DNA of 10,451 bases from a virus (lineage: Duplodnaviria; Heunggongvirae; Uroviricota; Caudoviricetes): positions 1-10,451 of IMG/VR virus record IMGVR_UViG_2562617113_000011. One strand, 5' to 3'. The notes under the pieces are model-generated. The model saw nothing but the letters and a program-made list of their open reading frames with translations, did not search any database and had not been told where the DNA came from. Shown here one piece after another: positions 534 through 10,451 of this stretch (positions are counted from its first letter, which is position 1; every line of letters starts with the position of its first letter). Made by a program: the position numbers and the translations under genes.

Positions 534-1076
534 TTACTTGTCTTTATCCGGCTGAAACTTATCAGGCACATTTCCGGTAGTTTCCATCAGATAATCGGAC
601 AGCATTCGCGGGATGTTTTCATCAAGTTTTGTGCATGCGTTACAGGCTCTGACAACTTCTTTTTTCAGGCCATCCAGCATGGCGGGGGTCATCTGTGGGA
701 AGCGCCTTTGCATGGTAAGCGGCAGGCTGTCCATGATAGATGAAATCTGACTCGCCAGTTTTGAAAGCGCATATATACAAAATTCCGTACTAATCACGTC
801 GCCGCGTTCGCGCTCGTTTTTAAGCTCCTGCGCCTCCGCCTGCGCTGTCAACAATCTGATCCTGACTCGCAAAAGCTCATCATTATCAATCTCGCCTTTG
901 TCGTCTGTAATCTGGTTAATTGCATTGCTAACCCGATTGTCTATTACGCTGGCAACATCATAAAACGCCTCGCGGCCTTTACGTTCAACGGGAGTCACTC
1001 CCCACTTGTCGAACGCTGTCGCACTTACACGGCAGCTTTGCGCCATGTTTTTTTTGTTCATCAGGTGCGATTTCAT
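534..1076 (-). CDS. Terminase small subunit, lambda Nu1-like (180 aa)
   Basis: The C-terminal two-thirds aligns closely to my recollection of lambda gpNu1 (e.g. AQAEAQELKN, LPLTMQRRFP, LDENIPRMLSDY); the N-terminal DNA-binding region is divergent. Start chosen at the ATG at 1076 (GGGGA SD, 5-nt spacing); alternatives are GTG 1088 and ATG 1061. Confidence 0.8.
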   Translation of the reverse strand: MKSHLMNKKNMAQSCRVSATAFDKWGVTPVERKGREAFYDVASVIDNRVSNAINQITDDKGEIDNDELLRVRIRLLTAQAEAQELKNERERGDVISTEFCIYALSKLASQISSIMDSLPLTMQRRFPQMTPAMLDGLKKEVVRACNACTKLDENIPRMLSDYLMETTGNVPDKFQPDKDK

Positions 1077-1181
1077 CAATATCCCCACTTAAGTAATGTT
1101 TCAGGTTGGTGTATTTGTTTTATCTTTCCCTTTTTATTCATAGAGATAGAGCGAACAACAAAACCACCACCAGCACCCGAA

Positions 1182-1277: not shown

Positions 1278-1622
1278 TCAACCAATCAACTTATTGCGCC
1301 CTTTCAGGGCATTACGCCTGGCGCGTTCAATCTTGAGGCATAACGCCGCATCAGGTTTTTCGGGGGTGGGAACAAGGCAATAATTTGATGCGCGCGGAAT
1401 GTTGTTAATCCACGCAACAACTTCGCTTAAATACCATGCCTTGCGGCCTTTCGTAACCTGTACGCGTTCGGGGAACTCTCCGCGAGCCTCAAGGTTTAGC
1501 AATGTGCGACGGCTAAGGGTTGTAAGCTCCACTACCTGATCCATATCGACAAGACGCTCGCTTAAGCGCATTTTATCATCGATATCTAATAGCTCTCGTA
1601 GCTGACTATCTCTTTCAATCAT
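1278..1622 (-). CDS. AlpA/excisionase-family HTH DNA-binding protein embedded in the head/packaging operon (114 aa)
   Basis: The central segment LVDMDQVVELTTLSRRTLLNLEARGEFPERVQVTKGRKAWYLSEVVAWI fits the AlpA/Vis pattern (hydrophobic-T-x-LSRsT-x(6)-G-FP ... W ... EV-x-W). ATG at 1622 lies 9 nt after the D-like stop, with GAGG overlapping that stop. Confidence 0.55.
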   Translation of the reverse strand: MIERDSQLRELLDIDDKMRLSERLVDMDQVVELTTLSRRTLLNLEARGEFPERVQVTKGRKAWYLSEVVAWINNIPRASNYCLVPTPEKPDAALCLKIERARRNALKGRNKLIG

Positions 1623-1982: not shown

Positions 1983-3023
1983 TTAACCAATGCGAACGGT
2001 AACAAAACGATTGATGCGGGCCGGTATTGGCTGTGGTGCAGAGTGCGTTTGTACGTACTCAATAGCCGGATCACCTGGTACGATGTAATTTTTCGGCGCA
2101 AGTTCGGCTTTAGTAAGCCCCATTCTGATTAACTCAGGATCCTGAATGCCACCGTAGGCAACGATGCCCTGTAATGATGTGTTGCCAAGCACCATCAAAT
2201 CAGGATCAAGGAAATATCTTTCAGTTCCGTCCTCGTCGGTATAACGTCCGCTATATACCACAATAGCAACATCGCCAACGTAACCCTTGAAGCTTACAGA
2301 ATCCCCAAGATTTTTCAGGGCCGTTTCAAGAACGGAATTAGATCCCCGTCGAGTATCAAGGCAATCTTTTACTGCTTTAAAGGCGCGGTATTTTTTCCAT
2401 ACGTTGCGGCCCATTACGATGATATTTGTAGTACCTTCGCTGATTTCTGCGTACTCTTCGATGTCATCGTTTGGATCAAATGTTGATAAATCTCTACCGC
2501 CCCACTCCGTACCGCCGAACTGCGTGATAATATTTTGTGGTTTTATATTCCAGTCCAGTTCATAACGTTCAATTCCATCGCCTTCAATGATATTTTTCCC
2601 CGTTGTAACCGCCTGAACAGCAAGCCACTCAATACGCGCACGAATTGCCTGCGCTTGTCTTACTAACGCTCGCTTTATTTTGAAACTGCGTGATGAATAT
2701 GCATTGAATTGTTCCGGTGATACGCCTGGTTGACGAACGGCTATTTTATTTGGGTCGATACTACTTTTTGGCTTCATATAGCCAGGACGAATTACTTTTG
2801 ATTCGTAGCCTTCATCGCGTGAGACTTTGCTACCAACCATAGGGGAACAAAATGCAGCCATCGGGATGTCTGGATCGTCAATAATATCAAGCGCAATATC
2901 CCGCGTCTCAAATGTAACGACTCGCTTAAAAAACAGGTTTATAAATAAAGAATTAATCTGCCATTGAATATCTTCGGCATTAACAACCTGTATTAACATA
3001 GCTGGTGAATATAAATCACTCAT
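1983..3023 (-). CDS. Major capsid protein, lambda gpE-like (346 aa)
   Basis: Long collinear similarity to remembered lambda gpE (NIITQFGGTEWGGRDLSTFDPNDDIEEYA, FKAVKDCLDTRRGSNSVLETA, GDVAIVVYSGRY, MVLGNT, VPGDPA); 346 aa against 341 aa for gpE; AAGAGG SD 4 nt before the ATG. Confidence 0.85.
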   Translation of the reverse strand: MSDLYSPAMLIQVVNAEDIQWQINSLFINLFFKRVVTFETRDIALDIIDDPDIPMAAFCSPMVGSKVSRDEGYESKVIRPGYMKPKSSIDPNKIAVRQPGVSPEQFNAYSSRSFKIKRALVRQAQAIRARIEWLAVQAVTTGKNIIEGDGIERYELDWNIKPQNIITQFGGTEWGGRDLSTFDPNDDIEEYAEISEGTTNIIVMGRNVWKKYRAFKAVKDCLDTRRGSNSVLETALKNLGDSVSFKGYVGDVAIVVYSGRYTDEDGTERYFLDPDLMVLGNTSLQGIVAYGGIQDPELIRMGLTKAELAPKNYIVPGDPAIEYVQTHSAPQPIPARINRFVTVRIG

Positions 3024-3207
3024 ATAACCTCTTAATACTTAGTAAAAGTGTCGCGTTAATTTTATCATCTGCCTTGTTCGGCATCTTTATGCATTGCTAT
3101 GCAATAGTGTGCAAAGTTTCAATCTTCGTTTATTTATCCGGCGTTACGTGTCATTCTGTACAGCGTTACAAGTTCAAAGACATAAATTATTCTCTTTGGT
3201 GATGAAA

Positions 3208-3234
3208 GGGTCGGAATATTCCGGCCTTTTTTTT
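3208..3234 (+). terminator. Intrinsic terminator on the plus strand (hairpin GGUCGGAAUAUUCCGGCC followed by T8)
   Basis: Palindrome CGGAATATTCCG extended by G-C and G-U pairs, then TTTTTTTT at 3227-3234. No convincing plus-strand CDS lies upstream. Confidence 0.55.
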
Positions 3235-3256
3235 GCGTGGTGTGACGGACTAAACT

Positions 3257-3281
3257 GATAAAAGCCGGATTGCTCCGGCTT
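3257..3281 (-). terminator. Intrinsic terminator ending the SSB operon (stem AAGCCGGA/TCCGGCTT, loop TTGC, then UUUUAU on the minus strand)
   Basis: Perfect 8-bp GC-rich stem located 15 nt after the SSB stop; the minus-strand read is followed by a T-run. Confidence 0.6.
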
Positions 3282-3295
3282 CTGTCACTCGTTGC

Positions 3296-3718
3296 TTAAA
3301 ACGGTATGTTATCCCCGTACGGATCATCGTTACCCGCCTGTTGTTTTGCCCTGTTCAGTGCGTCAGTAGCCTGCCCCTGCTGGCCTTTTTTGCCGCCCGG
3401 TCGCACCGTTCTCGCACTGATTACGCTGTCTGCGATAACCTGCCAGCCCTGCCGCGTTTCGCCGTTCTGGCCTGTCCACTGGCTTACCTGCATGTTACCC
3501 GCCACGCTCACCAGTTCGCCTTTGTGGTGTTTTGCCAGTGCGTCGGCCTGTCTGCCAAACGCCAGGACAGATAACCACATCGTCGCCGTTCCGTCATTTG
3601 CCTGGCTGCATGGCAGGGGAACCGCCATACTCGCCATCGCCATTTGTGTCCCTTTGCTGGTGGTCTTTAACTGCGGGTCAGCCACCAGCCGCCCGTAAGC
3701 CGCTATCTGTGCTGTCAT
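3296..3718 (-). CDS. ssb: Single-stranded DNA-binding protein (140 aa)
   Basis: OB-fold SSB pattern (GRLVADPQLK ... WLSVLAFGRQAD ... GELVSVAGNMQVSQWTGQNGETRQ), a Gly/Gln-rich linker and a C-terminal DDPYGDNIPF resembling the canonical SSB acidic tip DDDIPF. ATGA start/stop overlap with the upstream gene. Confidence 0.75.
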   Translation of the reverse strand: MTAQIAAYGRLVADPQLKTTSKGTQMAMASMAVPLPCSQANDGTATMWLSVLAFGRQADALAKHHKGELVSVAGNMQVSQWTGQNGETRQGWQVIADSVISARTVRPGGKKGQQGQATDALNRAKQQAGNDDPYGDNIPF

Positions 3719-3993: not shown

Positions 3994-4040
3994 ATTTATT
4001 TTTACCCCCTCGTTTAAAAAGTTTTGAGTTGTGCCTCCCC

Positions 4041-4268
4041 TTGTCTACCTTATCTACCTTAGTGGCCCCTATGCCAGTAATGGCGCGGCTTTCAGCGGGG
4101 TAGAGTGCTTTTATCCACTATCTACTCCGTATCTACCTCCCTGTCTGATTCAGGTAAAATCAGGTAGAGAGGGTAGACAGTGGGTAGACTGTAAAAAAAG
4201 GCTGTCTACCTAACTTAATATACTGAATTAAATGTATTTTCCTTTACTCAGGTAGACAGGGTAGACAG
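4041..4268. repeat. Iteron cluster, putative origin of replication: about 9-bp GGTAGACAG/CTGTCTACC repeats in both orientations flanking an AT-rich spacer
   Basis: Direct copies at 4163-4171 (GGTAGAGAG), 4172-4180, 4183-4191 (GGTAGACTG), 4251-4259 and 4260-4268. Inverted copies at 4041-4049 and 4202-4210, with degenerate TCTACC units at 4051-4058, 4119-4127 and 4131-4137. AT-rich stretch at 4211-4250. Lies immediately 3' of the primase gene. Confidence 0.65.
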
Positions 4269-4281
4269 CAATTACAAAAAA

Positions 4282-6036
4282 TTATAAAAACGCGTCGCAC
4301 TCGTCTGTTGTTATTGCGTTAGTCTGCGTTACCCCCTTAACTTTCCGCGTAATATATTCATGTCCATAAACTTTTGCGGCAGGCTTCATAGCCTTGCCAA
4401 AGTCATTTACGTTTAGCGGTTTGCTCCTGCCTGCGTATGCCATAAACGCCAGATAGACGCGGTAAAGGCTGTTCCTGGTCGTGTACTTCACTGAATCACC
4501 ACCGCCCCCCATCATCAGGCCGCGCGCTTCCTCCAGAAAATTCAGGAACTGGCAAAACTCAATAACCGGATCCGTCTGTTGCTTTATTGCCAGTGCTTCA
4601 TCACCGTCACGCTGTTCCAGTAGTAAAGCCCGTGCCTTCTCAGGGTCGGTAAAGTTCGCCAGCAATCGGCGGATAATAACGGGGATTTCAGCCGCAATCT
4701 TTTCCGGTAGCTCCCTGTCTTTTTCGGCATCACTGACGATATTGTCGAAACGGAAAATCACGCGACGACGTGCCACACCTCCGGCCCGTTCGGTGAATAT
4801 CATCGGGTTGTTGTTGGTCGCCAGCACCACCGCCCTGATTACCGCCGTGAAACGCTTTTCATATTTCGGGTTAATTTCCACGGGGTCGCCGCCTGTGATT
4901 TTCTTGATGCCCGTTCCTTCGCCTGTATATTTCGGCTGGTCAGCCAGGACGATAAGACGACTCCCGACAACCTGCGCACGTCCACCAGCATCATCAAGCG
5001 ATGTCATTTCAGCGCTTACCGTGTTCTGTTTCCCTGCCAGAAGGCTGGCTATGTGTGTGAATGTACTTTTACCGCTCCCGCCGTCTCCGGTGGCCTCAAT
5101 AAACATCTGCCAGTCGTACCGGTTCGCCATAATCATGTACAGCGCGGCACATATACGCATCATCTTGCGCGGGTCTTTTCCGGCTGCGTGCTCAAGCCAT
5201 TTATGAAAGTTTGGCGCGTTATCGCGGATGTTTTCCCCTGGTGCTGGTAGCGTGTACTCAATGCCGTTGTGCGTGGTGATCCAGTTCTCCGGCGTGTGCG
5301 GGGAAAATTCCCCCGTTTTCAGGTCAAGCGCACCATTGGCGAACGGCAGCAAATCGCCGGACGGCTCGCCCATTGGTTCGGCAATAACTTTTAACGCTTC
5401 CACGGCGTTATTGATTACGCGCTTGCTGAAAGTGGCCCTGTGCTCTGAATAGATCGCCACCATTTCGCGGCTAAGTTCCATTGTGCTGACCGGACACCAT
5501 ACCCCGCCGCGCCATACGTGAACGATTTCACTTTCAGGATGTACGCAAACGCCATCAAAGCGATCGGCAAGCAGCTGCGCGCGCTCACTGTCCGCCATCT
5601 GCGAAAGTTGCGCCTTTTGCTTTACCGGAAGCTCAATGACCAGACCATCAGAAAGATTCTGGCGCTCACGGGCCAGATATTCGCGCCAGTTCTCCACCTT
5701 CTGACCGTGCATACCGTCAGGGTAAAAATTTGCATCCTGTACGCCTGCCGCCGCCAGCTTCTGACCAATTGCCTTTATCATTACAGGCGCAAGATATCCG
5801 GCCCTGTATATGCGTGCTGATTTTCGGCCTTCCGGCACAATTTGCAGCTTATCCAGTTCGGATAACTGCTGCTCCCCAAGCCACACAGGAGGCTCATTAT
5901 CTCCGGCCATACGCGCATCATGTTCCTGCCATTGTTTCGCGTGTGCCCAGGCATCACTACCCGCAAAAATAATGACTTCTGTTCCTTTGTGTTTTATGCC
6001 GCGTGACTGCTGTTTTACGTTCGGTGCCAGTTTCAT
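4282..6036 (-). CDS. P4-family primase/helicase replication initiator (584 aa; Walker A GDGGSGKST, SF3-type NTPase)
   Basis: P-loop GDGGSGKST and a following hydrophobic Walker-B-like stretch RLIVLADQ; overall resemblance to the helicase/C-terminal part of P4 alpha and PICI pri-rep proteins; N-terminal region possibly toprim-like. ATGA overlap with the upstream gene. Confidence 0.85.
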   Translation of the reverse strand: MKLAPNVKQQSRGIKHKGTEVIIFAGSDAWAHAKQWQEHDARMAGDNEPPVWLGEQQLSELDKLQIVPEGRKSARIYRAGYLAPVMIKAIGQKLAAAGVQDANFYPDGMHGQKVENWREYLARERQNLSDGLVIELPVKQKAQLSQMADSERAQLLADRFDGVCVHPESEIVHVWRGGVWCPVSTMELSREMVAIYSEHRATFSKRVINNAVEALKVIAEPMGEPSGDLLPFANGALDLKTGEFSPHTPENWITTHNGIEYTLPAPGENIRDNAPNFHKWLEHAAGKDPRKMMRICAALYMIMANRYDWQMFIEATGDGGSGKSTFTHIASLLAGKQNTVSAEMTSLDDAGGRAQVVGSRLIVLADQPKYTGEGTGIKKITGGDPVEINPKYEKRFTAVIRAVVLATNNNPMIFTERAGGVARRRVIFRFDNIVSDAEKDRELPEKIAAEIPVIIRRLLANFTDPEKARALLLEQRDGDEALAIKQQTDPVIEFCQFLNFLEEARGLMMGGGGDSVKYTTRNSLYRVYLAFMAYAGRSKPLNVNDFGKAMKPAAKVYGHEYITRKVKGVTQTNAITTDECDAFL

Positions 6037-6337: not shown

Positions 6338-6571
6338 TTATTCTCCGGTGTGCTGTTCTTTATATCTGTCGTGCAATAGGTCTATTTCTTGTAGTTCCAT
6401 TATTACAGGCTCAAGAAGCGTTATTAATGCCGTGACAATTCGGGATTTTTGTTTGTCGCGTTCATTATCGCCAAGCGTTTCAAGCCATAAGCGCAATATT
6501 TCCAACATGTTTTCACTGTGAGAAAGTGCAAGAAATGCGCGGTCTATTGTTTCGTGGTAAATATCACGCAT
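6338..6571 (-). CDS. Hypothetical small helical protein (77 aa)
   Basis: GGGGA SD 5 nt before the ATG at 6571; 1-nt gap after the upstream gene's stop. No family recognised. Confidence 0.5.
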   Translation of the reverse strand: MRDIYHETIDRAFLALSHSENMLEILRLWLETLGDNERDKQKSRIVTALITLLEPVIMELQEIDLLHDRYKEQHTGE

Positions 6572-6572
6572 A

Positions 6573-7025
6573 TTAATCCCCGTCCGTCGCTTTTCTTAAA
6601 ATAACCTCTGTCACGAAATCAGCATAATCGGCGGCAATATTCAGTACATCAAGTCCCGTTGATTTATATTCTTTCGTGGAAAGTAAGAAAAAATCCGCTC
6701 TAATAAGTTCTGGCATTGACGAAAGCGCATCAGCCGCATCACCAGGAACGCCGGAAAATTCCTGTTTCAGGGCATTAAAACGATCATCACGCATAACCCC
6801 CCCATTTTCACAATCAGTAATCAGGATGGCTTTAGCCTCATTCAGTGCCATATCAGCACTAAATTGCATAACAGCCAGTGAGTGAGGAACGAAAGCCCCG
6901 GCATATTCTGTTTCGCTGGTGGCGTGCTTATGTGCCCTGTCCGCGATAACAGAAATATCAATCAGCGCGTGCATCAGCGTTTTGATGGCTTCGGCGGCTG
7001 CGTCCTGACGGGTGTTATTGCACAT
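6573..7025 (-). CDS. Hypothetical protein (150 aa)
   Basis: Strong AGGAGG SD 6 nt before the ATG at 7025. The longer 300-aa ORF in the track is an R/P/S-rich upstream extension and was rejected. Start overlaps the stop of the upstream gene by 11 nt. Confidence 0.55.
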   Translation of the reverse strand: MCNNTRQDAAAEAIKTLMHALIDISVIADRAHKHATSETEYAGAFVPHSLAVMQFSADMALNEAKAILITDCENGGVMRDDRFNALKQEFSGVPGDAADALSSMPELIRADFFLLSTKEYKSTGLDVLNIAADYADFVTEVILRKATDGD

Positions 7026-7557
7026 GGCGCACCTCCTGACGAATACGGGCGGCGAATACAGCGACACAACCGGACGGGCAATGGTTACGCGCTTCGCGTT
7101 CCGTCCAGGCGGTGACGTGGATGATTTGGGATTCTGACGCGCCAAAGATGATAAAGCGCCAGATAAAGACAGTGTGAGAATGTATAAGGGTAGGGATAGT
7201 AGCCATGTTGGCAGCCTCCTTTGACAGTGAAGAATTTCCACCGCAGGAAACGCCAATTTCGCTGGCGGTGGACTGAACGGGGTTGGCGTAACCGGCGTCA
7301 AAGGGAACCGGCGCTTCCGAAGAAGCCCCCGCCCAGCCCACCATAACTTTGATGTGAGCGAATGCGGACGATAAAAAAGACGCTGGCGCGTCATATATCG
7401 CCTTTGACATTTCCAAGACGCCAATCCCGGCACCAGATTTTGCTGGTGCGGGTAAATCATAGCCCTGGCTGGCATTGGCGATCAACAGGTTTTTTACATC
7501 GGGTTTATTCAGGTTGTGCGAGTCCCGCCCTTGCGGGTGTGTGGTATGATTTAACAT
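7015..7557 (-). CDS. First gene of the replication operon: Ash-family-like N-terminal region fused in frame to an Icd-like (host cell division inhibitor-like) C-terminal region (180 aa)
   Basis: The N-terminal half carries motifs I associate with P4-like Ash proteins (AKSGAGIGV, MVGWAG, PVPFDAGYANPVQSTASEIGVS). The C-terminal 63 aa (FIWRF ... ESQIIHVTAWTEREARNHC ... AVFAARIRQEV) resembles Icd-like proteins and has its own AAGGAGG SD before an internal ATG at 7206. GAGGT SD before the ATG at 7557. Family assignment is from memory. Confidence 0.5.
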   Translation of the reverse strand: MLNHTTHPQGRDSHNLNKPDVKNLLIANASQGYDLPAPAKSGAGIGVLEMSKAIYDAPASFLSSAFAHIKVMVGWAGASSEAPVPFDAGYANPVQSTASEIGVSCGGNSSLSKEAANMATIPTLIHSHTVFIWRFIIFGASESQIIHVTAWTEREARNHCPSGCVAVFAARIRQEVRHVQ

Positions 7558-8473: not shown

Positions 8474-8680
8474 TTACGCAGCCGTTCCGCGCGCTTCTTC
8501 CTCGCGCTCTTTCAGCCAGGCCAGCACTTCATCTTCATACCAGCCAACACGACGCAGACCGATTTTGAAGCCTTTCGGGAATTTTCCTGCGTTGATCATG
8601 TCCTGTAGCGAACTGTCTGCCTTGATGCGCAGAATATTTTTTACTTCCTGACGGGTAAGTATTTTTCTGATTGTTTCCAC
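8474..8680 (-). CDS. alpA: AlpA/Vis-family phage transcriptional regulator / excisionase-like protein (68 aa)
   Basis: HTH pattern LRIKADSSLQDMINAGKFPKGFKIGLRRVGWYEDEVLAWL typical of AlpA; GTG start at 8680 with GAGGT SD 8 nt upstream; position next to the integrase. Confidence 0.8.
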   Translation of the reverse strand: METIRKILTRQEVKNILRIKADSSLQDMINAGKFPKGFKIGLRRVGWYEDEVLAWLKEREEEARGTAA

Positions 8681-8813
8681 TATGTTTTACCTCGTTAATC
8701 CGGCGTATTCCGGTGATAAATACGGTAAAACAGGGCTGGGCGGGAAAAACAGTACCCACCGTTTTAAAACGGTATCCACTGTTTTTTATCTCATTGATTA
8801 CGCTTTTCTTTCT

Positions 8814-8846
8814 GCAAAAAAATAGCGACCGCAAAGGGCCGCTATT
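8814..8846 (-). terminator. Intrinsic terminator after the integrase-proximal small gene (10-bp stem with one mismatch, then a U6-8 tract on the minus strand)
   Basis: Inverted repeat AATAGCGACC/GGCCGCTATT (8821-8846) followed on the minus strand by an A-run on the plus strand (8815-8820), i.e. U-tract. Confidence 0.55.
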
Positions 8847-8850
8847 GTGA

Positions 8851-9093
8851 TTACCGTTTCCACTTCTTAGGTCGCCCACCGCATTTAAGGCTGGTGGGCC
8901 TCAGCACCTTGTCGATGCTTTCAGCCAGATTTTTCGATGCACCACGCGAGCGCAAAAAACTGACTACCTCGTGTTTTGTGGGGGCTGTTGATTTGTCTTC
9001 CGGATCGTATGTTGACCAGAATTCACGATTTGCCATTAACGCCAGTTGCAGCCCTTCGCCGCAAGCAGGGGATACCTTTTCATTGAAAAACAC
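8851..9093 (-). CDS. Hypothetical protein downstream of the integrase (80 aa), basic C-terminus GGRPKKWKR
   Basis: GTG start at 9093 with AAGGAG SD 8 nt upstream; followed by an intrinsic terminator. No family recognised. Confidence 0.45.
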   Translation of the reverse strand: MFFNEKVSPACGEGLQLALMANREFWSTYDPEDKSTAPTKHEVVSFLRSRGASKNLAESIDKVLRPTSLKCGGRPKKWKR

Positions 9094-9209: not shown

Positions 9210-10451
9210 TTACACGGCACGGATACCCCTTTTACCACTGGCTATGGTCACTCCGGTAGCTGCGGCCTCTACAAATTCCCCCCACCAGCGCATAAGCACC
9301 ACGCGCTTTTCCAGGTAGTTACTTCGGTTATATGCTCGCCTTACCTCGTTCGTGTCCACGTGTGCGAGTGCGGCCTCGATTACGTCCGGCTCGAATCCTT
9401 CCTCGTTCGCTGCTGTACTGAATATGGCGCGTAATCCGTGAGACACCAGCACACCAGCGTATCCCATCCGGCGCAATGCAGCGTTAGCGGTCTGGCTGTT
9501 CATTGGCAGCATTGGATTTTTAAGGCTGGGAAAAACATGTTCCCTGTGTGCGCTGATTGGCTTCATTGTTTCCAGTACAGCCATCGCCTGACCGCAAAGA
9601 GGGATCACATGGTCACGGCGCATCTTCATGCGTCCGGCTGGAATCGTCCATGTTTCGGCATCGAGATCTATTTCTTCCCAGCGTGCGGCGGCTGCTTCGG
9701 CTGGGCGTGCTACGGTCAGCAGTTGCCACTCGATTAGCAATCTGGTTTGCCGTTCTATGCTGGCGACCGATAAATCGTGCATTAGCTGCGGTAGCTGTTC
9801 CGGTCGGATGGTTGGCATATGCTTTTTAGTGGGGGAAGGGAATGCCTTGCGGACGTTCGCGGCGGTGTTGATGTCAATCAGCCCACTGTTGGCAGCAAAA
9901 TCCATCACTTCATTGATGCGTTGTAAAACGCGTTTCAGAGTTTCCAGGTTGCCGCGTGCTTTAATGGGTGTGAGTATCTCAACAAAGCGGCGAGCGGTGA
10001 GGGTATCTATTGGCGTGTTTCCGATGTACGGGAATACGTATTTTTCCAGGGATCGCCAGATATCCTTAATCGTGTTGTAAGCCAGATTCTGGCCTTTTTT
10101 CATCTCGTACCAGTCCAAGGCAACTTTTTCGAACGTGTTGCCCTTTTTCCTGCTCTCTGCTTCACGTTTCCGGCGTTCGTAGTCCTGTGGGTCAGTTCCC
10201 TTTGCTATGAGTGACCTGTATTCATTCCGTCGCTCTCTGGCATCAGACAGGGAAACATCATTTAGCGATCCAAGGCTGATAATAGTCCGTTTTTTATCTG
10301 CCGGGCGGTAGTACGTAAAACGCCAGATTTTTGATCCGGAGGGCTTCACCAGAAGAAATAATCCTCCGCCATCCTGCAGGGTATATTCCTTTTCCCCTGG
10401 TCGTGCGTTTTTGATCTCCGTAATAGTTAGTGGGGTGGTTTTTCGTGCCAT
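9210..10451 (-). CDS. int: P4-type tyrosine integrase (site-specific recombinase, 413 aa)
   Basis: N-terminus MARKTTPLTITEIKNARPGEKEYTLQDGGGLFLLVKPSGSKIWRFTYY is typical of P4/CP4-57-type integrases; C-terminal catalytic region with HGLR and the RRAYNRSNY tyrosine motif. The start codon is the last 3 nt of the window. Confidence 0.9.
   Translation of the reverse strand: MARKTTPLTITEIKNARPGEKEYTLQDGGGLFLLVKPSGSKIWRFTYYRPADKKRTIISLGSLNDVSLSDARERRNEYRSLIAKGTDPQDYERRKREAESRKKGNTFEKVALDWYEMKKGQNLAYNTIKDIWRSLEKYVFPYIGNTPIDTLTARRFVEILTPIKARGNLETLKRVLQRINEVMDFAANSGLIDINTAANVRKAFPSPTKKHMPTIRPEQLPQLMHDLSVASIERQTRLLIEWQLLTVARPAEAAAARWEEIDLDAETWTIPAGRMKMRRDHVIPLCGQAMAVLETMKPISAHREHVFPSLKNPMLPMNSQTANAALRRMGYAGVLVSHGLRAIFSTAANEEGFEPDVIEAALAHVDTNEVRRAYNRSNYLEKRVVLMRWWGEFVEAAATGVTIASGKRGIRAV

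Follow-up and report, generated by a model that had tools for sequence, protein, structure and literature searches.

The window analysed here, namely the whole 10,451-nt stretch of IMG/VR record IMGVR_UViG_2562617113_000011, is by its gene content a phage satellite of the Gram-negative phage-inducible chromosomal island (PICI) type, in which every gene reads leftward. In the gap between the major capsid gene and the ssb gene lying upstream of it, a stem-loop followed by a run of T residues, hereafter hairpin A, is directed away from the capsid gene. This hairpin probably brings about the Rho-independent termination of a short non-coding transcript (~115-165 nt), which would start in the control region of the capsid operon and run outward from the capsid gene. 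Combined with three or four phased TTGCA repeats and with an extended -10 element devoid of a -35, the terminated unit appears to constitute a single cassette of ~210-240 bp which, judging from sequence comparison, belongs to the capsid module of a PICI family and travels with it between islands. We regard the feature as a candidate new small RNA (sRNA)/terminator unit within a conserved control cassette of PICI late operons. Structure, orientation, conservation, covariation, the lack of coding potential and the geometry of the repeats form the basis of this reading, whereas the production of the RNA in this island, its 5' end, its regulator and its target are what we infer. The region comprises the following features:

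3028-3033, minus strand: Shine-Dalgarno sequence AAGAGG of the capsid gene, 4 nt ahead of the ATG at 3023, read from the sequence
3067->3059, minus strand: predicted promoter of the capsid operon, extended -10 TGATAAAAT, without a -35 match
3063-3068, plus strand: alternative -10 TATCAT (5/6), mirroring the capsid -10, which would give a bidirectional core promoter
3080-3114, minus strand: four direct repeats with an exact 10-bp spacing, TTGCA at 3114->3110, TTGCA at 3104->3100, ATGCA at 3094->3090 and ATGCC at 3084->3080
3093-3105, no strand: ATTGC-TAT-GCAAT dyad, an incidental product of repeats 2 and 3
3100-3108, plus strand: candidate promoter, extended -10-like TGcAATAGT (TGcAATAAT followed by TATAAA in relatives)
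3115-3234, plus strand: putative small non-coding RNA of ~115-120 nt, its 5' end deduced, syntenic with putative 101-127-nt RNAs of relatives
3005-3202, plus strand: 65-aa hydrophobic open reading frame (ORF) ending in TGATGA just before hairpin A, rejected as a gene
3190-3199, plus strand: CU-rich, anti-Shine-Dalgarno-like motif TTCTCTTTGG, immediately 5' of the terminator
3205-3234, plus strand: hairpin A, predicted intrinsic terminator directed away from the capsid gene, stem 3209-3215/3220-3226, T8 at 3227-3234
3255-3280, minus strand: hairpin B, predicted intrinsic terminator of the ssb transcript, stem 3263-3269/3274-3280, U tract 3262->3255

Both hairpins and the dyad had been described in an earlier note on this DNA and were found again at the same positions. 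The 7-bp stem of hairpin A consists of five G-C pairs, one G.U pair and one A-U pair, closed by the four-nucleotide loop ATAT. As plus-strand RNA, it folds with -19.6 kcal/mol (z = -4.67 against shuffled sequences), whereas on the minus strand the G.U pair is turned into C.A, the energy is only -8.1 kcal/mol and the U tract is missing. With its G+C-rich stem-loop and U tract, its strand specificity and its conserved orthologous position, hairpin A has the properties of an intrinsic terminator and is predicted to be one. Hairpin B reaches -20.0 kcal/mol (z = -5.0) when folded as minus-strand RNA, with the loop TTGC followed by UUUUAUCA; it begins 15 nt past the stop codon of ssb (3296), and its plus-strand version lacks a U tract. 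The claim that a minus-strand hairpin ends the ssb transcript is borne out by its distribution, as hairpin B accompanies the 3' end of ssb in 455 other Escherichia coli genomes. A consensus terminator scan of the window reported 23 sites, neither hairpin being among them. The scan probably missed both since its maximal-stem rule absorbs flanking A/T pairs and thereby uses up the T run; its negatives are unreliable where A and T runs flank a stem, and the two hairpins were therefore verified by folding. As direct repeats, the hairpins (3212-3225 and 3266-3279) are 79% identical and share the core CGGA(N4)TCCGGC; the same CCGGA/TCCGG stem is present in the terminator of another lineage, the E. 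coli 83% clade.

The two hairpins do not have the same origin, according to the comparison with complete E. coli genomes. Among 5426 such genomes, megablast returned 485 matches, 455 of which cover only window positions 3260-3350, that is the end of ssb with hairpin B, whereas positions 3024-3256 are contained in only 30. In parallel, the GC content falls from ~0.6 in ssb to ~0.35 leftward of ~3250, the drop occurring across 3250-3300. This split and this drop place a recombination junction within the 28 nt that separate the hairpins, each hairpin being assigned to the module on its own side, B to that of ssb and A to that of the capsid gene. The convergence of the hairpins would thus be due to hairpin B having arrived with another module.

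Species genomes, assemblies, IMG/VR and metagenomes supplied relatives of the capsid gene (at least 68% capsid identity). A hairpin with a T run directed away from the capsid gene is present in all 60 distinct capsid-upstream regions (43/43 and 17/17), 191-238 nt upstream of the capsid ATG, and is kept whichever gene lies upstream, be it ssb or a gene encoding a DUF4238 protein, a Toprim primase or a DUF927 helicase. Its stem varies from one lineage to another (GGTCGGA/TCCGGCC, GCCGGAAAA/TTTTCCGGC, AGCGGG/CCCGCT, GACGGG/CCCGTC, GCAGC..GCTGC), compensatory variants of the terminator or stem occurring in loci L121 and L205 as well. Terminators of the upstream operon pointing in the capsid direction are restricted to a minority of relatives, so that the convergent pair is a consequence of which module lies upstream. 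Within the 5426 complete E. coli genomes, the cassette of the window type is found in 30 and that of the 83% type in 335. Carriers include GTEN_23 (NZ_CP113486.1, bases 936102-936334) for the former and APEC O2-211 for the latter. No DNA similar to the region was found by a search of a phage database.

The region was expected by the earlier note to hold the capsid promoter, and a conserved extended -10 candidate agrees with this expectation. Transcription is predicted to start near 3052, giving a leader of ~29 nt. The motif TGnTAnnnT, which corresponds to a predicted sigma-70 extended -10, occupies the corresponding alignment position in every lineage but L079 and those of the L087 type. Upstream of it, almost every lineage displays three TTGCA repeats, whose 5' ends precede the TG of the extended -10 by 27/28, 37/38 and 47/48 nt. 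Relative to the predicted capsid start, the repeats begin at ~-43/-53/-63 and are centred near -41/-51/-61, and no other 10-bp TTGCA/TGCAA array exists in the window. These direct repeats with 10-bp spacing, rather than the dyad, are the element of the region that relatives conserve. Indeed, the suggestion that the dyad serves as an operator did not hold: it folds no better than shuffled sequences (z = -0.46), and it is absent from relatives, which carry direct TGCAAT repeats. It exists only because repeat units 2 and 3 happen to read TGCATTGC/TATGCAAT. On the opposite strand, a TATAAA box directly follows the last repeat in 13/17 lineages, often together with TGcAATAAT, and the terminator is located 101-127 nt beyond; this range of RNA lengths in relatives assumes 5' ends set from the TATAAA box.

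A candidate binder of the repeats, on the strength of gene comparison, is the AlpA-family protein encoded within the capsid operon. Every relative of this capsid module encodes it, and its helix-turn-helix is nearly invariant outside Serratia and Scandinavium, two groups in which the TTGCA repeats diverge along with it. Counting against this candidate, the capsid operon of islands resembling EcCICFT073 has TTGCA motifs and no recognisable AlpA-family gene. The other AlpA of the island (8474-8680) was rejected as the binder, its own upstream region (8681-8850) carrying the palindrome ACCGTTTTAAAACGGT and no TTGCA repeats. A sigma-54 promoter (TGGCAC-N5-TTGCA) was likewise discarded as, by eye, the repeats read TTGCAC without GG and are spaced by 10 instead of 11.

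The earlier note found no plus-strand gene upstream of hairpin A, and this stands, the sole candidate, ORF 3005-3202, being unsupported. No ORF is conserved across the nine lineages, which points to a non-coding transcript, and Rfam gives no match at E <= 1 in 3024-3295, nor at the syntenic site in seven relatives. Of the two alternatives offered for the hairpin, the first, a short rightward transcript from a divergent promoter, is favoured by the 60/60 terminators, by the TATAAA box in 13/17 lineages and by a strand-specific covarying stem. The latter belongs to a clade of the Kluyvera/Kosakonia/Superficieibacter type, in which an RNA of ~120 nt contains a covarying stem-loop whose loop is constantly UUCCUCC. 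Its stem varies by compensation (GUUAUUU/AAAUAAC, GUCGC/GCGAC, GUCGU/AUGAC, GUUAC/GUAAC, GCUU/AAGC). In an alignment of nine such RNAs fitted to the model, 97.8% of the cells are paired, versus ~50% with slid partners, and compensatory (double) changes are seen in 5/15 pairs. The U.G pairs, which are frequent, are compatible only with an RNA read outward from the capsid gene. A covariance model built on this RNA, R1, detects the loci L077, L121, L006, L205 and L206. The CU-rich motif TTCTCTTTGG of the window aligns with CTTCCTTTGG/CTCCCTTTGG of the E. coli 83% clade, and a CU-rich pentamer is found in 16/17 lineages versus 7.1 expected from composition. The window and the E. coli 83% clade further share the blocks CGTGTYAWT and YTCYCTTTGG as well as the CCGGA..TCCGG terminator. 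RNAalifold applied to the E. coli clade supported only wobble-compatible changes, and the window breaks the helix. Within the putative RNA, a direct repeat GCGTTAC occurs twice (3141-3147 and 3163-3169, plus strand), flanking the palindrome CTGTACAG. Relatives have a comparable CTGTTAY repeat, also in two copies, the second of which is the 5' arm of the CCUCC stem-loop; these repeats hint at alternative pairings in the RNA.

Several observations weigh against a functional RNA of this kind in the window, whose own copy is the least canonical of all. Where 13/17 lineages have TATAAA, it has TGCAAA (3110-3115). The Kluyvera-type covarying stem-loop is lacking both in the window and in the E. coli 83% clade, and R1 detects neither of them, nor Serratia. 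With no TATAAA box, no covarying stem-loop and no detection by R1, the window copy may be degenerate or functionally different, keeping only the terminator and the CU-rich tract. The enrichment of the CU-rich pentamer is modest and the lineages are not independent. The alignment used for covariation had been fitted to the model, and many of its rows are closely related. A search for targets by k-mer complementarity within the elements gave a longest stretch at the level of shuffled controls, only the generic anti-Shine-Dalgarno CU motif emerging, and RNAduplex on translation-initiation regions was too noisy for target calls.

The main rival explanation is unlikely: hairpin A would be only an insulator that stops by-product divergent or bidirectional transcription, the RNA itself having no function. 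The mirror-image -10 elements (TATCAT/TGATA) in the window and relatives fit it, and so does the failure to find an RNA target within the elements. Likewise, the body of the RNA is poorly conserved across clades, the covariance model failing on the window, and it is the position of the terminator that is conserved, not its sequence. Selection on the RNA body is nonetheless indicated by the covarying stem-loop with its UUCCUCC loop in one clade and by the CU-rich enrichment; moreover, a spacing of ~100-130 nt is kept, though a terminator adjacent to the promoter would do the same job.

It is very unlikely that hairpin A is a second, back-up or bidirectional terminator of the ssb/replication operon. 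Transcripts of ssb do reach it 28 nt after hairpin B, and in some relatives (L079, L121), where A and T runs lie on its two sides, the hairpin obtains a score in either direction. However, the minus-strand form in the window is weak, owing to its C.A mismatch, and is followed by CUUUCAUC, the reverse orientation lacks a U tract in most relatives, and hairpin A was inherited with the capsid module and not with ssb. Hardly any credence can be given to a small hydrophobic plus-strand protein (ORF 3005-3202, or 37 aa from the internal ATG at 3089) whose mRNA would be ended by hairpin A: the ORF is hydrophobic and ends in the double stop TGATGA 6 nt ahead of the hairpin, but it has no Shine-Dalgarno sequence, its start overlaps the capsid start codon or falls within the repeats, no corresponding ORF is found in any of the eight relatives checked (0/8), indels break the frame, and T-rich sequence gives hydrophobic ORFs by chance. 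Equally improbable is the idea that the repeats and hairpins form a replication origin (iterons) or a cos packaging site instead of transcription signals: direct repeats spaced by 10 bp beside AT-rich DNA do resemble iterons, and, according to PMC6092414 and PMC10111431, PICIs carry their ori downstream of pri and EcCICFT073 has two cos sites, but the iterons of the window lie elsewhere, at 4037-4270, immediately past the primase gene, the TTGCA repeats remain with the capsid module across four different replication modules, and 3024-3295 holds no cosN-like sequence, the closest match to lambda cosN outside a coding gene being at 8869-8880.

Under the preferred reading, that of a terminated divergent sRNA, a simple switch can be proposed. 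The TTGCA repeats sit at the position of an activator site for the predicted capsid promoter and, seen from the opposite-strand TATAAA box, would overlie the spacer and the -35 region. Being placed in this way with respect to both core promoters, they would allow one DNA-binding protein to flip the two, turning the capsid operon on and the sRNA off. The RNA could act in trans on ribosome-binding sites via its CU-rich, anti-Shine-Dalgarno-like element. Alternatively, it could act in cis, opposing read-through from the upstream replication operon both as an antisense RNA and through transcriptional collision; in most relatives, this operon is not followed by a terminator of its own. As for hairpin A, it would keep divergent transcription from running antisense into ssb. 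The second alternative of the earlier note, in which the hairpin insulates the capsid promoter, is not supported: oriented as it is, the hairpin would protect the ssb/replication module, and not that promoter, against antisense transcription. A more elaborate scenario, which we put forward as a speculation with rather small chances of being right, is that a CII-, Cox- or AlpA-type protein of the helper or the island lands on TTGC-N6-TTGC-N6-TTGC and activates the capsid operon of the satellite while occluding the promoter of an anti-Shine-Dalgarno sRNA; until then, the sRNA would silence the translation of satellite or helper late genes or destroy read-through transcripts.

The cassette can be compared with several known systems. 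In lambda, the oop RNA is specified by the promoter pO and a terminator between cII and O and overlaps the 3' end of the cII coding region. The putative RNA of the window resembles oop in being short, opposite to two flanking co-directional genes, ended by an intrinsic terminator and complementary to read-through from the upstream operon. It differs in that its end lies 62 nt away from ssb and its overlap is confined to non-coding DNA, in that the unit shares its control region with a divergent late promoter, and in that the sequences are unrelated. The lambda promoters activated by CII, namely pRE, pI and paQ, carry TTGC-N6-TTGC flanking the -35 (~-39 and -29). The same tetramer and spacing are seen in the window in TTGCACACTATTGC at 3101-3114 (minus strand), again with a promoter lacking a -35. 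The pattern continues with one mismatch at 3091-3104 and is conserved in relatives, giving three or four units. Unlike the CII sites, there are three units, not two, located at ~-43/-53/-63 of the predicted start, on another face of the helix, and no CII homologue is encoded in the island.

The late promoters PLL and Psid of satellite P4 are activated by the Cox protein of the helper P2, through phased direct Cox boxes, and by Ogr/Delta, through TGT-N12-ACA; Cox-type small winged-helix proteins bind direct-repeat arrays in helical phase. The predicted capsid promoter is similarly a satellite late promoter without a usable -35 and with activator-type sites upstream, but its repeat unit TTGCA is not a Cox box. 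A late promoter of the P2 Ogr/P4 Delta type was rejected, the sole TGT-N12-ACA match of the window being at 6390-6407 and none occurring in the region. Like the C4/CI antisense RNAs of P1, P7 and P4 (Rfam RF01695, RF03163), of which one lies at 7261-7462 in the window, the putative RNA would be a small regulatory RNA of a phage or satellite; it differs from them in having a separate locus, a different structure and no Rfam family. According to the abstract of the source (bioRxiv 10.1101/2022.04.08.487710), SviR is an sRNA of the Vibrio cholerae satellite PLE proposed to tune expression in the satellite-helper conflict, and sRNAs had not been shown before it to act in satellite-phage conflicts. 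The putative RNA is, like SviR, encoded by a phage satellite, whereas the host and satellite family differ, the sequences have no relationship, and SviR is experimentally supported, the window RNA being predicted. The AlpA antiterminator of Pseudomonas was rejected as an analogue since it is a different, larger protein with a site between -35 and -10 (PMC9371919).

A closer parallel is offered by islands whose capsid is ~55% identical to that of the window and which are taken to be of the EcCICFT073 type. PMC6092414 and PMC6739421 describe int, alpA, pri-ori, a lambda-type c1499-like capsid and a c1500-like decoration protein in EcCICFT073, as in the window; the differences lie in the capsid itself and in an additional 68-aa ORF and a promoter-proximal hairpin with a U run in the islands of that type. 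In locus L002, a palindromic -10, ATTATAAT, is flanked by TTGCA motifs. Both L002 and 22/23 IMG/VR loci possess a terminator oriented outward from the capsid gene, 403-414 nt ahead of its ATG, with the loop CCUCYUG in most of them. Hairpin B follows ssb in these islands too, and many of the outward terminators converge on this same hairpin. The outward terminator with a convergent hairpin B thus suggests that the architecture is general for this group of islands. Besides, a strong hairpin with a U run (e.g. AUAACUGGAUGAACAUCCAGUUAUGAUUUUUU) is located at 5640-5720 (minus strand) of L002 and at -233 from the capsid ATG in L135-L160, directly downstream of a palindromic TATAAT. The 68-aa ORF lying ahead of the capsid gene comes just after this hairpin, which resembles a promoter-proximal attenuator or a target for antitermination.

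In our literature search, no published description of the terminator was found, and a search with the exact sequence returned no match. The passages searched in PMC6092414 and PMC6739421 make no mention of transcription signals or of an RNA upstream of the capsid gene, and we found no description of how the capsid/packaging operon is controlled in E. coli PICIs, which are studied as model phage satellites. According to PMC6092414, and also PMC6739421 and PMC10111431, EcCICFT073-type PICIs encode the capsid homologue c1499 and the decoration homologue c1500, neither with a known phenotype. A conserved cassette with phased repeats, a divergent sRNA and a strand-specific terminator would provide concrete handles on the control of the capsid operon. 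This cassette is common in E. coli and would explain the mosaic junction, as modules exchanged between two convergent terminators each keep their own transcriptional end. If the RNA is functional, an unannotated sRNA family would be added to enterobacterial genomes; if the switch and the anti-Shine-Dalgarno sRNA are true, they would be the first sRNA layer described in the control of Gram-negative PICIs.

The island surrounding the cassette has the attributes of an EcCICFT073-type PICI, with int, alpA, pri and ori, unidirectional genes, homologues of phage late genes, a size of ~10 kb and a specific integration site. A copy 98% identical to it adjoins tRNA-Pro, between yejM and yejO, in E. coli GTEN_23; the annotation of the near-identical L001, integrated at this site, names ssb a single-stranded DNA-binding protein. 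Its main genes and elements are:

9210-10451, minus strand: integrase
8474-8680, minus strand: AlpA-family regulator (alpA)
7261-7462, minus strand: C4/isrK-type antisense RNA region (Rfam)
4282-6036, minus strand: D5-type primase
3296-3718, minus strand: ssb, last gene of the replication module (Pfam SSB, E = 2.6e-16)
1983-3023, minus strand: major capsid protein gene of the lambda gpE family, heading the capsid operon (Pfam Phage_cap_E, E = 3.4e-40)
1278-1622, minus strand: second AlpA-family winged-helix gene, within the capsid operon (PDB 8c3t match, E = 4.5e-10)
534-1088, minus strand: Nu1-like small terminase gene (Pfam Phage_Nu1, profile positions 78-161 only, the C-terminal part)

After the capsid gene, the capsid operon continues with a gpD-like decoration gene, the second AlpA-family gene and the Nu1-like small terminase gene. 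In the small terminase (534-1088), Pfam does not recognise the N-terminal domain by which Nu1 binds DNA, yet PHROG 57 spans residues 5-177; a PDB search with this protein gave no match to Rpp. In the C4/isrK region (7261-7462, minus strand), Rfam scores are 82 bits for the C4 antisense RNA and 70.5 bits for isrK, and an a1/b1 C4 target match reaches 39.9 bits, below the gathering score of 46.7. This region, of the P1/P4 type of RNA immunity, sits inside or upstream of a 300-aa ORF (6573-7475), the area of which matches a Bro/Eta-like zone discussed in PMC10111431. The AT-rich gap after the primase gene (4037-4270) contains at least 10 GGTAGACAG/CTGTCTACC iterons in both orientations and is likely the replication origin of the PICI.

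Upstream of alpA, a large palindrome, AAAACAGTggatACCGTTTTAAAACGGTgggtACTGTTTT, at 8740-8790 is likely to serve as an operator for the alpA promoter and bears no relation to the TTGCA repeats. A candidate cos site, GGTGGGCGACCT, is found at 8869-8880 (minus strand), at the 3' end of an 80-aa ORF (8851-9093), with two mismatches relative to the lambda cosN GGGCGGCGACCT; an equally close match lies at 4883-4894, within the primase gene. Finally, a truncated second Phage_cap_E gene is located beyond the last genes of the island in L079 (6760-8006) and L077 (8594-9041), followed in L079 by a Packaging_FI gene. This arrangement suggests an insertion of the two islands within the capsid gene of a lambdoid prophage, as in the helper-embedded PICI configuration of PMC10111431.

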